From assembly GCA_964016885.1 (NCBI GenBank), contig OZ024740.1, forward strand, positions 229,028,001 to 229,092,000: a DNA stretch of 64,000 nt, given 5' to 3'. The notes under the pieces are model-generated. The model made no database searches. It saw only the letters and a list, made by a program, of their open reading frames with translations, and had not been told where the DNA came from. The position numbers and the translations under genes were made by a program. Origin of the DNA: Eledone cirrhosa. Its lineage: Eukaryota. Below, piece by piece: positions 4,985-63,795 of this stretch (position 1 is its first letter; the number at the start of each line of letters is the position of its first letter).

Positions 4985-6036
4985 TAAAATAACAGATTAA
5001 AGTTTAAGCAAAGAATCGCTGCTTTCACCCTTAACGGGATCTTTTGAAACTAAAAAAGTCAATCTGTGAACGCAGAAGTAAATAATTCAAAAAACGTTGC
5101 AACCGAAGGAAGGCAGGAAGACGATACTTTGGTTCGTGGAAACGTTCCCTTCACAAAACATACAAGTGATATATACTTACCTATACGAATAAGTAATGGT
5201 ATTAACATAACATATACTTAGCTACCACATCAAGACGTAAAATATCCGCGTATAGTTCGTACTATCCGTTAGGGTATAACGTGGGGCTGTAATAGAGGAA
5301 AGTTTTGTGCAATTTATGTTTACAAGCCGAAATTGCCTCAGAATTTTTGTTTAAGATGTGGTCTTTGGCGTAGAGTATTTCCAGCGCCTCAGCGGCGCAG
5401 AAGTCACATGGTGTTTTATTTCCATTATACGATCTAGCCTTAGCTAGGACCTCCCAGTGTAACATATATTGGGTGTGGTTGTCTTTTAGACTCCAGATAT
5501 AAGCTGAAAGTGACGTCATATTCCTTCTTAAAGAGTTAAGAAAAGAATGGGGATGCATATAAAGACGCTGCTTGAATCTATTGGCAGTTAACCATATGTA
5601 GGCCCTACGGGACGTGGGTGTTTCAACCTTACATTTGTAGACAATGTTACTAGAGAGACATTTCCCGGATAGGGGGCAGTCAATCCGATTCCTACAATTA
5701 CAGTTAGTACTAACTACAGGATTGCACGTGTTCCTACGGATACGTAATTTAGCTAAATTTGAAGCTGTAATGTTATGTGCAAATATAACGGAAATAAAAG
5801 ACCATGTGACCTCTGCAACGCTGAGGCCCTGGAAATACTCTACGCCAAAGACCACATCTTAAACAATAAATCTGAGGCAATTTCGGCTTGTAAACATAAA
5901 TTGCACAAAACTTTCCTCTATTACAGCCCCACGTTATACCCTAACGGAGAGTACGAACTATACGCGGATATTTTACGTCTTCATGTGGTAGCTAAGTATA
6001 TGTTATGTTTATACCATTACTTATTCGTATAGGTAA

Positions 6037-6040
<4 letters not shown>
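4985..6040 (-). mobile_element. Penelope-like element 3' fragment (GIY-YIG endonuclease) with inverted duplication
   Basis: Minus ORF 5262-5750 reads CNC..CPLSGKCLSSNIVYKC..AYI.LT..FKQR..H..SF..SLSAYIWSLK..CDFC..E..LNKNSE..CKH, a PLE GIY-YIG domain. 5783-6040 is an inverted copy of ~5170-5432. Flanked by (TA)n. Confidence 0.85.
5001..5051 (-). ncRNA. Degenerate hammerhead ribozyme in Penelope 3' region
   Basis: AGTTT-CAAAAGA(core mutated from CTGAAGA)-TCCC GTTAA GGGT-GAAA-GCA..TGC-TT-AAACT. A partial plus-strand copy lies at ~4798-4845. Confidence 0.5.
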
Positions 6041-6527: not shown

Positions 6528-6534
<7 letters not shown>

Positions 6535-6808
6535 TTAGAAATTATAAGCTTTCACCGTATTTTAGACTAAAGAAATTTCTAGCCTGATAGTGGGGTTTAT
6601 AACCCTCGGAGAAATGGAAAAAGATGAGTGTTGCCATGTACGGCAACACTCATCTTTTTCCATTTCTCAGAGGGTTATAAACCCCACTATCAGGCTAGAA
6701 ATTTCTTTAGTCTAAAATACGGTGAAAGCTTATAATTTCTAATTTCTAATTTCAAACTCGCGCACCGTTTAAAAACATACTTACATGTTTACATTTATAA
6801 TTTGCTTG

Positions 6809-6812
<4 letters not shown>
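6528..6812 (+). mobile_element. Fold-back relative of the 24844 element
   Basis: ~108-bp inverted arms centred at ~6638 (GCCATGTACGGC), homologous to 24880-25000, with a tail; (TA)n flanks. Confidence 0.7.
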
Positions 6813-8071: not shown

Positions 8072-8260
8072 GTGAAGGCGCATGGCTTAGTGGTTAGAGC
8101 ATTGGGCTTGCAATCGAAAGGTTGCGAGTTCAATTCTCGGACCGGGCGATTTGTTGTTTCCCCGAGCGAGGCACGTTATTTCACGTTGCTCCAGTTTACT
8201 CAGCTGTAGAAATGAGATGATAGGGACTGGGGTCCTTATCATTAAATCACCCAAGACACC
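8072..8260 (+). mobile_element. tRNA-derived SINE family 2 (CORE-like); relatives at ~3790-4015 (-) and ~12225-12432 (-)
   Basis: A box TGGCTTAGTGGTTAG, B box GAGTTCAATTC, and a TTATTTCACGTTGCTCCAGT..ACTCAGCTG domain. Confidence 0.7.
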
Positions 8261-22252: not shown

Positions 22253-23250
22253 ATAACAGAACACACTCACTGTTTGGGTGGTTTTCGCTTCTGTATCTTT
22301 TATATCTTCCATAGTTAATTTATTTGGCAATAAATGTTTATCATTGACTGACCAACGGTTAAAAATACAGATATAAATATATATATAGTCTAACAAAGTT
22401 CTTTCGTTGCACATCTGCAACATCATCAGTGGTACTATTATCATGTTTCCTCCTATTGTATTGTATTGTAATGTTTACGCCATTTTTATTTTATTTGTTT
22501 ATTTTTGTCTCCGTCTCTGCCCATGCGTTTGCGTGTGTGTGTATAATGTTTGGTGTGTGTGTTCGCGTTTGAGCGTATGTGTTTAGGTTTTTGTATTCTA
22601 TCTTTGTTTACTAGTATGCGTTTATGTGTTTGTTGTTATTGTACTTGTGTATATATTTATTTATTTATTTATTTATTTATATTTCCCTTAAGTCAGTATT
22701 GTTTGGTTGTTGTTATTCTATTCGTTTTTTCTGTTTAACTTTGGTTTTCTAAGCTCTATTTCACGCGCTTCTCTGATTTGCCTACCTGTTGGGTCATTTC
22801 TATGTTTAGATATTATTTTAATTTCTATGTTGTCATGTCTTTGTCTGGCGTGTTCGTATAGTACTGAACCGTTTTTTTTTTTTGTTTTTTTTTGTCTTTT
22901 TAATTCCCCCCAGTGTTGGTCTATCATTTCTCCTATGTTTCGAGCTGTATGTCGTTGTCATGTTTCTGCAATAACCCTCTGTACATCTTATGCTATAGAT
23001 TACATTTCTAGTTTTACAGTTTATCTGGGGGTTCACTTTACATATAACACATTTCTTTGTATACTCTGATTCTGTCTCTTTGGTTGTAGCCAGAGAACTG
23101 CATGCGGTTGATGAAGTGTTGGATGTGTCTTTCCATTTCAGTTGGGTCGGTCAATGATAAACATTGATTGCCAAATAAATTAACTGTGGAGATATAAAAG
23201 ATACAGAAGCGAAAACCAGCCAAACAGTGAGTGTGTTCTGTTATTATTTC
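22251..23250 (-). mobile_element. Degenerate Penelope-like element (RT thumb + GIY-YIG remnants) bounded by ~105-bp inverted repeats
   Basis: Frameshifted pieces HFINRMQFSGY, CKTRNVIYSIRC and SVLYEH..H..ISKHRNDPTGRQIREAREIE..PKLNRKNE. 22251-22355 is inverted versus 23145-23250. An HHR core CTGATGA-tGTTGC agatgt GCAAC-GAAA lies at 22402-22429 (-). Confidence 0.7.
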
Positions 23251-23286
23251 TGGCAATATTATTACAACAATATGACCCTCCCCAAG

Positions 23287-23322
<36 letters not shown>

Positions 23323-23327
<5 letters not shown>

Positions 23328-23768
23328 AAGTTATATTTAAAAATTGTTGGGTTACAACTAGTAAATATTTATAACTGATATAAAAGCACTCGACAAATAT
23401 TTGGAGTATATTTACAATATTAAATAAATGGAAAACTATATTTATAAAACCATATTTATTTCATTATATATATTTCGGGGATATCATATTAACAATATGC
23501 TATGCCTTCATCAGACAAAATACAATATAAACAGTTTTATAGATAAATATATTCGACATACCGTAATAAACATCGACTTCATTTGAAGAGGTTTACGCTA
23601 GCAGATGAAGTCGATGTTTATTACGGTATGTCGAATATATTTATCTATAAAACTGTTTATATTGTATTTTGTCTGATGAAGGCATAGCATATTGTTAATA
23701 TGATATCCCCGAAATATATATAATGAAATAAATATGGTTTTATAAATATAGTTTTCCATTTATTTAAT

Positions 23769-23772
<4 letters not shown>
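23323..23772. mobile_element. Fold-back HHR element in (TA)n (~170-bp inverted arms)
   Basis: Arms ~23413-23584 and ~23601-23773 are near-perfectly inverted with a 16-nt loop; there is an extra tail on the left and (TA)n on both sides. Confidence 0.75.
23665..23730 (+). ncRNA. Type I hammerhead ribozyme with minimal palindromic stem III (mirror copy 23457-23522, minus strand)
   Basis: TATTTTGT-CTGATGA-(AGGCATAGCATATT GTT AATATGATATCCCC)-GAAA-TATATA-TA-ATGAAATA. Confidence 0.7.
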
Positions 23773-23806
<34 letters not shown>

Positions 23807-24803: not shown

Positions 24804-24841
<38 letters not shown>

Positions 24842-24843
24842 GT

Positions 24844-25270
24844 GTAAGAATATTTTCGAAACAGCGAGTGGGTTTGAAATTATTAGAAATATAAGCTATC
24901 GCCGTATTTTGACTAAAGAAATTAAAGAAATTATTTAGCCTAATAGTGGGGTTAAGAACCCTCGGAGAAATGGAAAAAGATGAGTATTGACGTACATGGG
25001 AGTCGAACCCATATCTTTGGTTATCCGGACCACTGTGCTACCATTTACATCAACACACCACCCGTCTTTTTCCATTCAAATTAGAAGCTATAAACTTAGC
25101 GACTGTAATGTCAAGTAAGAATATTTTCGCAACAGCGAGTGGGTTTGAAATTATTAGAAATGTATCGACTCCCATGTACGTCAATACTCATCTTTTTCCA
25201 TTTCTCCGAGGGTTCTTAACCCCACTATCAGGCTAAATAATTTCTTTAATTTCTTTAGTCAAAATACGGC
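24844..25270 (-). mobile_element. tRNA-containing pLTR-like element (~271-bp unit, partial tandem plus inverted end) in (TA)n
   Basis: Direct repeat 24844-24890 / 25115-25161; 25165-25270 is an inverted copy of ~24900-25006. Confidence 0.7.
24988..25059 (-). pseudogene. tRNA-like cloverleaf (72 nt), not a canonical tRNA
   Basis: GGTGTGT TG ATGT AAATGGTA GCAC A GTGGT CCGGATA ACCAA AGAT ATGGG TTCGACT CCCAT GTACGTC A. A and B boxes are present and TTTTT follows shortly downstream. The anticodon loop lacks U33. Confidence 0.65.
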
Positions 25271-25293
25271 TATATATATATATATATAATATG

Positions 25294-28496: not shown

Positions 28497-28852
28497 ATGG
28501 TGGCTGCCAACTCGTTTTCGAGTACGGCCACTACTTTATATCCATGTAGGAGAACCCCTACCGATGCGCTGAACGAGTGTGACTTTTTAGTCCAGCCAGC
28601 GACTTGAAAACTCTGGTACAAACACTACACTTGTGACAATTATTGACACATAGTGCTGGGCCCATGGTACCATGTGACGACAAGTGCAGAGAGATCTCCA
28701 GATATAAAGCAATGCCTGTGCCGTGAAGCTTTTATAGTGAGCAAAGGCACTGCACAAAGCCAGTCCCACTCTCTTAACCAAGATGATATTTACCAAAAAG
28801 AAGAACAAGTCAACATCATTGGATACCATCAGGGTTGCAGGTGTTATATCAG
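28497..28852 (-). mobile_element. Element H 3' part fused to RTE coding fragment
   Basis: 3' ~355 bp of H joined to 28851-29280 at an AG microhomology. Confidence 0.75.
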
Positions 28853-29280
28853 TTCTTTGCCATCCTTGCTGCGAAGCGGTGTCACCAGAGAAGAAGACGG
28901 TCCATAAATTTCACGCAAGAGGCTGTACGACAGCTTTGTGTTATTGGAATCTGACGCAATTTGTATCTCATCAGCCTTCTCACTCCTCCACTGATCCTTC
29001 ATCTGAGAAAGACTCCGCCTAACACGTGATTTTACATCCTTGAGTTCCTCATGCAACGTATTCTTCTCATGTGGTTTTGCCGTCAAGTAGCGTGACAGAG
29101 CACGCCTCTTATCAGCCAACAAGTCTTCTATATGTACATCATTCTCATTAAACCAGTCCTGATCTTTTCTCTGCACCAATCCCAGAACACGCCTGCCTAC
29201 ATCATAAACCGACGTTTCAAGGGTCGGCCAATCCTCACCAAGATCTTCAACCTGCATCTCTTCTTGCAATGTCCTCTTCA
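28851..29280 (-). mobile_element. Inverted RTE coding fragment (linker region)
   Basis: KRTLQEEMQVEDL...QDWFNEND...TPLRSKDGKEL; about 215 bp overlap the start of the plus-strand RTE with several mismatches. Confidence 0.85.
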
Positions 29281-31594
29281 GGAGAGGAATACGTTGCATG
29301 AGGAACTCAAGGATGTAAAATCACGTGTTAGGCGGAGTCTTTCTCAGATGAAGGATCAGTGGTGGAGTGAGAAGGCTGGTGAGATACAAATTGCGTCAGA
29401 TTCCAATAACACAAAGCTGTTGTATAGTCTCTTGCGTGAGGTTTATGGACCGTCTTCTTCTCTGGTGACACCGCTTCGCAGCAAGGATGGCAAAGAACTT
29501 CTTCGTGACTCACAAGGAATTCTACGAAGGTGGCGAGAGCACTTTGATGATCTTTTGAATCAGCCGTCTGTCGTCAGTGAAGATTTCCTCAATCTCATTC
29601 CAGAAAGTCCTGTGAAAGTAGCTCTCGCAGAACCTCCGACGCTTGTGGAGGTTGCAGTGGCTATTTCGAAGCTGAACAGTGGAAGATCTCCAGGTATGGA
29701 TGGCATACATGCTGAGCTCCTACAATATGGTGGTGAGAGACTCCTGCAACATCTTCACTCCTTGTTTGGCAGGATATGGGCTAATGAATCCGTACCTGAG
29801 GACTGGAGAGATGCAGTAATGGTGGTCTTGTACAAGGGAAAGGGTAACAGGAATGATTGTGGGAACTACAGAGGTATATCATTGCTTTCTGTCGTAGGGA
29901 ACGTTTTATGTAGGGTGCTTCTGAACCGTCTGCTGACACACATTGCAGATTGTGTTCTTCCTGAAAGTCAATCTGGTTTTCGTGCTGGACGCGGCACTAC
30001 TGATATGATCTTCTCAGCTAGACAGCTCCAGGAGAAGTGCATGGAACAAGGTAGGATCTGTATCAGGTACTGTTAACAGAGATGCATTATGGAAGGTTCT
30101 CCAGAAACTGGGTTGCCCTGATAAGTTCCTTGCTTTAGTTAGGTCTTTCCATGACGACATGAAGGCTTGGGTTAATGTCGGAGGTATCATGTCGGAGCCT
30201 AGCTCAGTAAAAAATGCAGTGAAACAGGGGGATATTCCAGCACCGACCCTGTTTGCCATATACTTTGCAATGGTTTTCTGTATTGCATTCAGGAATTGCG
30301 AGCATGGTGTTTACATCCGATATCGAACCTCAGGCAGCATATTTAACATCAGGCGCTTTGCTGCAAAGACAAAAGTATTTACATCAATCATAAGAGACCT
30401 CTTGTATGCAGATGATTGCGATCTTGTAGCGCACACAGAGAGTGATATTCAGCACATTTTGAATGCATTTTCTGACGCTTGCAGTGCCCTAGGATTGACT
30501 GTCAATCTCAAGAAAACCGTCGTCATGTACCAACCTGCCCCTGGTAAGCAGTACACTGAACCAAATATCTATGTGTATGGTAAACGACTTGGAGTGGTTG
30601 ATCAGTTTGTCTACCTGGGAAGCACTGTCAATCGATACAGCAACCTTGACAGTGAAATCTCACTTAGGTTTAGGAAAGCAAGTGATGCTTTCGGAAAGCT
30701 AGAAAAACGACTCTGGGGTCGGCGAGACATATGCAGGAGGACAAAGGTAAAGGTGTACAGGGAATGTGTGCTCTCTTGTCTTCTTTATGCCTGCGAGACT
30801 TGGGTCACATATCGACACCACCTTAAGCAATTGGAGCGTTTCCATCAGATGTGTCTCAGATGGATCCATGGCGTTCACTGGAGGGACAACATCAGTGATG
30901 TCGAGATTTTGGAAAGCTCTATGTGTGACAGTATAGAAGCTCTTGTGCTTAAGCAACGACTCCGTTGGAGTGGTCACCTTGCCAGGATGAAGGATTCTAG
31001 AATATAAAAAAACAACTTTTTTATGGAGAGTTGGTTCAAGGAAAACGACCGCCACATAAACCAAAAAAGAGGTATAAGGATTCCTTGAAAGCCTCTCTGA
31101 AAGACGCTAACATCTCTGCTGATACATGGGAAAATATTGCTGCTGATCGTAATAAATGGAGAAAGACTGTATATGAGGGGAAAGTTGCCTTTGAGGCATC
31201 TCGAATCGCATACGAGAAAGTAAAGCGGGATGTGAGGAAGGGCGTTGCTGTTGCATTTCCAGACGACGAAGGTCCTCCTATGGTGCTGACATGCAGCGTC
31301 TGTGCGAGACTCTGCCTAAGCAAAGCTGGACTCGAAAGTCATCTTCGCAGTCATAAAGTAAGACCAGTGGTTGACTACCAGGTTGCTGTTGGAGATGCTA
31401 CTCATCATGCTTGCCAAACATGTGGTAGAGAATGTAAATCACCAGGAGGGCTCAAGCGACATGCAAAAGTACACGAACTCCAACCACAGCCGACTATTTC
31501 CAGTGAATGTTTTGGTTGCCGACTCTGTGCAAGACATTTTAGATCATTGGCTGGGCTAAAAAGCCACATTCGATCGCAGCGTTGTTAGTTGCTA

Positions 31595-61365: not shown

Positions 61366-63795
<2,430 letters not shown>

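Follow-up and report, generated by a model that had tools for sequence, protein, structure and literature searches.

A tandem tRNA-fold repeat in Eledone cirrhosa, probably copied into TA repeats by a Penelope-like enzyme, and the break-off of its copies near tRNA position 58

How is a short non-coding element that combines a partial tandem repeat, an inverted arm and a tRNA-like cloverleaf copied through a genome, and what does the cloverleaf do in it? The question is raised by a locus in a stretch of 64,000 nucleotides of E. cirrhosa DNA, analysed as a whole and called the window below. The parts of this locus, and those of a second family member in the window, are as follows.

24844..25114, minus strand: full 271-nt unit, subfamily A; the RNA sense is the minus strand, with the fixed 3' end at 24844
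25115..25164, minus strand: second tandem unit, 5'-truncated, pLTR-like
25165..25274, plus strand: inverted arm; 5' end in the T-loop; on the 3' side it stops 53 nt before the main 3' end
24988..25059, minus strand: tRNA-like cloverleaf, anticodon loop non-conserved
25041..25052, minus strand: A-box region, tRNA positions 8-19
25000..25008, minus strand: B box / T-loop; A58, at 25003, is the putative m1A site and reverse-transcription stop
25060..25077, minus strand: closing stem, 5' purine-rich arm
24968..24985, minus strand: closing stem, 3' arm with the T5 run 24974-24978
24844..24967, minus strand: 3' half, three predicted hairpins kept across subfamilies
24844 to about 24896, minus strand: 3' tail between the two start sites
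24806..24843, no strand: (TA)n target flank at the main 3' end
25272..25287, no strand: (TA)n flank at the inverted arm
6534..6812, plus strand: second family member, subfamily B, truncated at about tRNA position 62
6534-6633: inverted arm of the subfamily B copy

A 271-bp unit, an inverted end and (TA)n flanks had been pointed out in an earlier note on this DNA, and all three are present. The terminal direct repeat of that note arises from a second tandem unit that is truncated: 24844-24893 and 25115-25164 match over 50 nt at 96% identity, with an offset of 271. The inverted arms (24897-25006 against 25165-25274) match over 110 nt at 98% identity, and the 5' junction of the arm at 25165..25274 lies at T55-A58, with a 3-nt ambiguity. 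This inverted arm and the subfamily B copy (at 6634) both break in the zone of tRNA positions 57-70. Some changes are private to the window copy, and through one of them a D-stem pair kept in the family majority is lost. Contigs from three runs of one sample, compared with 24844-25164, contributed only lists of variants and junctions.

The cloverleaf, described before as a 72-nt minus-strand fold, is recognised by the Rfam tRNA model RF00005, which spans exactly 24988-25059 on the minus strand at 33.7 bits (cut-off 29, E 3.4e-5), just above threshold. ARAGORN found no tRNA in the window at default settings, and drew a cloverleaf for the family majority at a lowered threshold. On their own, the 72 nt are no more stable than shuffled sequences (z 0.66), while together with the closing stem the z-score is -3.61; the predicted minimum lies 3-6 kcal/mol below the cloverleaf. 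The enclosing stem does supply a T5 run (24974-24978), as had been claimed, but it is longer than first thought: 18 bp, pairing 25060-25077 with 24968-24985, with a 3-nt bulge after the acceptor stem.

A functional tRNA gene would be expected to have a conserved anticodon loop and to pass a tRNA finder. Neither is the case here, and the anticodon loop differs among the majorities of subfamilies A, B, C and F, so that the cloverleaf does not decode. Differences in the stems between the A, C and F majorities keep or restore pairing, both arms of the closing stem are 2 nt longer in F, and in the last 3' hairpin differences are seen by eye on both sides. Subfamily B has lost three pairs, with two acceptor mismatches. 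A formal covariation analysis of the cloverleaf, on 10 distinct rows, was no better than shuffles (383 of 500). The compensating changes suggest selection on the fold, within few lineages. As for a donor tRNA, the 16 Rfam hits that were fetched gave 15 stretches (12 loci) and three partial ones, which match at only 35-45 of about 73 positions, and a degenerate-pattern search returned nothing.

A hammerhead ribozyme, which might be expected in an element of this layout, was not found. No core with up to two mismatches was present on either strand of the A and B majorities, using a descriptor that recovered three of five control sites, and the absence of a canonical CTGANGA reported earlier holds for both strands of these two majorities; the type I hammerhead per unit that defines non-LTR retrozymes is thus lacking in A and B. 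For C and F, where the core 7-mers alone were checked, these were absent. Rfam gave 51 matches in the window at E<=10, none of them from a ribozyme family. As a separate observation, a small inverted-repeat element at 23500-23800 of the window does carry a canonical type I hammerhead core, with an 8-bp stem I near 23670; it adjoins a fragment of another retroelement frame (23038-23460).

The element belongs to a large family. In the 3.0 Gb genome, a DNA search returned 3008 candidates, 40 of which were scored, and exact patterns gave 1118 matches for the tRNA core and 4609 for the 3' motif (controls 0), matches that count arms rather than insertions. This amounts to thousands of motif matches in at least five subfamilies, 67-88% alike, with non-coding units of 260-291 nt standing up to three or more in tandem. 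Subfamily A (32 full units) differs by 2.3% from its own majority; the unit is 291 nt in B and 260 nt in C, and subfamily E and a few older copies are also present. Subfamily F, with a unit of 286 nt and 262 exact motif matches, has copies 91% identical to its own majority and 67% to A. A pattern for the older subfamily D matched only three times, and a DNA search that set out from a diverged copy led to an adjacent repeat. The cloverleaf is retained in all subfamilies; the A and B boxes are invariant in the majorities of A, B, C and E, and the B box is broken in F. One locus (L267) is a decayed tandem array of at least seven family units, suggesting local satellite-like expansion.

The samples of loci used below are the first 100 matches listed for each pattern, mostly on contig C1, and are not random draws. 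In the 81 loci found by the 3' motif (137 segments, two overlapping loci included), 126 of the 137 segments have their end at -60..+35 relative to one landmark, and 105 of these 126 run into TA. On the minus strand, which is the tRNA's own sense, it is the 3' end that is fixed. Both orientations occur in 46 of the 81 loci, the 3' ends of paired arms lie 33-56 nt apart in 31 of 39 pairs, and an arm exceeds one unit in 17 of the 81 loci. Partial tandems, 5' inversions, a tail of 30-40 nt and a microsatellite target, the marks of derivatives of EN+ PLEs, are therefore all present. Passages of PMC8557442 describe this pattern for PLEs (partial tandems, an inverted 5'-truncated arm and a preference for (TA)n), and for the anole PLE those of PMC11167929 report a tail and two internal initiation sites, with target-primed copying in vitro; the two 3' ends observed here fit those two sites. 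The architecture, with its fixed 3' ends, partial tandems, 5' inversions and two start sites, supports the Penelope-type mobilisation proposed earlier, and a Penelope-like reverse transcriptase-endonuclease is the likely agent that copied the family into TA repeats.

Which enzyme this might be was sought by sequence. The window holds, at 5171-6040 on the minus strand, an ORF-bearing fragment whose 3' end has an inverted arm, in the same layout as the tRNA-bearing element. Its family (63,601 candidates, with frames of 650-726 aa) has an ORF of about 710 aa, which had no sequence match in Pfam or PDB and whose look-alikes carry RVT_1 and GIY-YIG, a lead only; this very abundant, Penelope-like family of RT and GIY-YIG type is a candidate partner. 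In its downstream region, the family has a hammerhead-like fold in which core U4 is changed to A. BLAST and nhmmer revealed no sequence link between the element and any PLE in 769 kb of fetched DNA, PLE ends included (one family complete, plus fragments). A shared 9-mer, seen by eye, was dismissed as chance. An exclusion-pattern search for a partner gave 144 matches, and the 30 loci examined were the element's own inversions or truncations. Cephalopod Naiads are described in passages of PMC8557442 as old remnants, and are for this reason an unlikely partner.

In 78 insertions, the furthest arm with the motif was taken and its 5' end located; the insertions came from the first 100 of the 4609 matches listed, duplicates were dropped, and one locus failed to anchor. 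Position 70 is reached by 65 insertions. Of these, 40 (34-40 over aligner settings) have their end at tRNA positions 57-70, an end rate of 6.3% per nt, against 0.3-0.9% per nt elsewhere; of the 25 that go further, only one ends within the next 14 nt upstream. The break-off is seen in A (20/36), B (9/16) and C (11/26). Ends joined straight to the flank show it as well (12 of 21 at 57-70), so that it is not only a product of fold-back at palindromes. An apparent cluster of ends at +41/42 turned out to be an alignment artefact of the T-arm palindrome.

Subfamily F served as a control, as it has U58 and G59 in place of A58 and C59, with the same palindromes. Among the insertions from 90 of its 262 motif matches, only 3 of 72-73 end at 57-70. 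The contrast between A-C and F (34-40/65 versus 3/72) has a p-value of 6e-11 to 7e-14 over three matched aligner settings, with the limit that F is older and differs from A at about a third of positions, which makes it no clean single-base control. Reverse transcriptase is stopped by m1A58, according to passages of PMC8599865, and TRMT6/61A methylates GUUCRA T-loop hairpins outside tRNA, according to those of 10.1101/202747; the GUUCRA T-loop motif is present in A-C and absent in F. We infer that the pile-up, which fits such a halt, reflects a reverse-transcription stop at m1A58, and the DNA copies are likely to record a host methyl mark on RNA. In the main texts of the open-access papers searched, no m1A footprint in genomic copies is described. 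In subfamily F, an internal TA run at -55..-67, a whole unit away from the start site, is where about 14 of 37 arms stop. These may be either one-round copies or the result of matching to the TA target.

Two observations complicate the reading of the pile-up as an m1A58 stop. Most of its ends lie at 62-66, and only 6 of 40 at 57-60, so that some trimming must be assumed. Moreover, leaky m1A would be expected to leave mismatches at A58, and the read-through copies show no excess there (A in 56/56 and 32/35), which counts against the mark. The same lack of misincorporation would suit an endonucleolytic cut in the T-loop, of the kind that yields tRF-3-like fragments, or a protein roadblock that needs the T54-A58 fold and no methyl group, and either would predict the same dependence on A58. 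The ends at 57-60 do sit, however, where an m1A58 stop falls, and cutting of every unit would give monomers starting from 59, whereas some arms pass one or two tRNAs. We therefore consider a cut or roadblock improbable, and retain the m1A58 stop as the preferred reading.

Copies that go through the cloverleaf can be followed in another set of 82 insertions, selected through their tRNA core, with 78 ends scored. In 63 of the 78, the arm carries on beyond -10 into the sequence of the unit. Arms that get past the tRNA mostly extend into the upstream unit, which implies multi-unit or circular templates. This also sets the element apart from classical tRNA SINEs, as the earlier note had anticipated: a 5' tRNA head and a LINE-like or A-rich tail are not seen, since all 30 loci examined downstream carry the element's own unit sequence and no different tail, and no target-site duplication is evident by eye, (TA)n flanks being unable to show duplications. 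Could the tRNA nevertheless be a passive captured relic, or the element a head-tRNA SINE with a LINE tail? The lineages are few and covariation is not significant, so that the retention of the fold could be mere inheritance. Against a relic, the cloverleaf was kept despite aborting more than half of the A-C copies. Among the alternatives that we weighed, this pair appears the least probable.

In the same sample, 15 of the 78 ends lie at +3..-8, with a mode at -3/-4, and 10 of these 15 are 3-8 nt upstream of G1; the clustering has a p-value of 0.002-0.005 in a window chosen after looking, and the difference between A-C and F (15/75 versus 3/39) is not significant (p 0.11). Pol III initiation near -4 accounts for these ends better than cleavage does, if weakly. 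In one alternative model, the cloverleaf was kept as the obligatory Pol III source of the mobile RNA, as in Sm-alpha, for which passages of PMC6765202 provide a precedent; it would be compatible with a stop at A58. The boxes that are invariant in A, B, C and E argue for it, as does the composition of A and B, which contain 10-11 T3 runs and no T4 or longer run except the T5 after the tRNA. This T5 run, however, lies only 10 nt behind the tRNA, the majority of arms extend beyond -10, and F, with U58, a broken B box and T6, T7 and T4 runs, still has its 262 matches. The spread of F makes Pol III at most one source of template. The internal Pol III promoter of the earlier note thus gains some weak support from A-C and is weakened by the spread of F; as an obligatory source we find it unlikely, if less so than the other alternatives.

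The earlier note had also considered that RNase P or Z processing replaces the ribozyme. Each unit would be cut, and a ligase would circularise the monomer. Rolling-circle copying would account for the multi-unit copies, both ends would presumably stay together in the closing stem after a cut at G1, and re-ligated circles would erase the cuts from the genomic copies, hiding them from our analysis. Nevertheless, no pile-up of 5' ends was found at +1, as expected from RNase P, or at +74, where RNase Z would leave them: only 4 of 69 ends are at 71-85, the ends near G1 are for the most part upstream of it, and B has its two acceptor mismatches. Pairing between leader and trailer hinders RNase P and Z, and to our knowledge the ends that these enzymes leave are not substrates of RtcB, both of which count against circularisation by this route. 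We tend to exclude it, giving it less credit than a T-loop cut and more than a relic or a classical SINE.

We consider rather probable, as a whole, an explanation in which a hammerhead-free tandem tRNA-fold repeat is copied by a Penelope enzyme into TA, with a host-methylated A58 stopping more than half of the attempts. Copying would be target-primed and would begin at internal start sites, as in vitro for the anole PLE, on a template that would be a multi-unit read-through RNA or a circle, as some arms exceed one unit. The T-arm would fold, TRMT6/61A would make m1A58, and the enzyme would stop there, giving copies without the tRNA; end-joining would then remove some bases, back to a 4-nt palindrome or a TA match close by. 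The weakest step is the last: the cloverleaf may have been kept mainly as a folded RNA domain, its leader-trailer stem shielding it from RNase P and Z, and the A and B boxes may act as a part-time Pol III promoter in young subfamilies. More tentatively, and in our view at somewhat under an even chance, the element may be a ribozyme-free Penelope parasite with a host-recognised tRNA mimic as its functional core, its thousands of genomic copies being a fossil record of m1A58 on the RNA of a germline retroelement, and F having escaped, by its change at A58, a brake that tRNA methylation puts on transposition.

We did not find the element described in the main texts of the open-access papers searched; the passages of the cephalopod repeat literature do not describe it, and supplements or repeat libraries may list it as an unclassified SINE. 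The closest known systems are Sm-alpha and the animal retrozymes, minus the ribozyme. The Schistosoma elements Sm-alpha and Sj-alpha are, in passages of PMC6765202 and PMC2770079, short tandem non-coding units with a hammerhead and a tRNA-derived Pol III part. The E. cirrhosa element shares the tRNA-derived A and B boxes within a tandem unit (in A, B, C and E), so that a tRNA-derived promoter in such a unit would have its precedent there and would not be new. Sm-alpha is described as transcribed by Pol III, needing an upstream unit, and its hammerhead is active, whereas the E. cirrhosa element has none; it has in turn an 18-20 bp closing stem with a T run, a B box lost in one subfamily, and the break-off at A58.

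Animal non-LTR retrozymes, from passages of PMC7229834 and 10.64898/2026.07.22.740005, are likewise tandem units of 170-400 nt with low GC, no ORF and a proposed mobilisation by PLEs. What defines them is the type I hammerhead of every unit, absent here, and expression as circular RNA is another of their characters. The main text of 10.64898/2026.07.22.740005 nowhere mentions tRNA. The pLTRs of EN+ PLEs, Naiads included, share with the element the partial tandem layout, an inverted arm truncated at its 5' end, a tail of 30-40 nt and the (TA)n target (passages of PMC8557442 and PMC11167929), and the lack of a hammerhead is already known for Naiads (PMC8557442); the E. cirrhosa element differs in having no ORF, a tRNA module and no sequence link to any PLE fetched. 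Finally, in the retroviral plus-strand strong stop, reverse transcriptase likewise halts at A58 of a tRNA fold (passages of PMC8599865). For the retrovirus this halt, on a host tRNA, is a required step, whereas in E. cirrhosa it would occur within the template of the element itself and leave copies that are dead.

If the stop is indeed m1A58, insertion ends would read out an RNA modification active in the germline, and a housekeeping tRNA methyltransferase would limit a retroelement; the natural A58/U58 pair makes both implications testable. Short Penelope riders would need no hammerhead, which bears on the question of its role in Penelope elements, and the family offers a 270-nt template with which to define the recognition by Penelope enzymes.

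Several other repeats and genes were encountered. A partial tRNA-like head at 8083-8140 of the window (plus strand, 31.2 bits) belongs to a common SINE-like repeat that also occurs at loci L172-L174, and a broken LINE with reverse transcriptase matches lies at 28844-31588 (plus strand). Outside the window, a dispersed tRNA-like repeat with near-identical flanks (loci L161 and L163-L171, at about 1500-1574) scores 53-72 bits in Rfam and is called Ala, Val, Asp or Thr by ARAGORN, with varying anticodons; it is likely another tRNA-derived mobile family, which would inflate tRNA counts. Loci L160 and L162, near 243.65-243.68 Mb of contig C1, are a tandem tRNA-Thr cluster with anticodons AGT and TGT and one AAT variant. 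At 61366-63795 of the window (plus strand), a single 809-codon frame rich in Q/H/N/T runs matches PF05760, the IER (immediate early response) domain, at E 2.4e-21.
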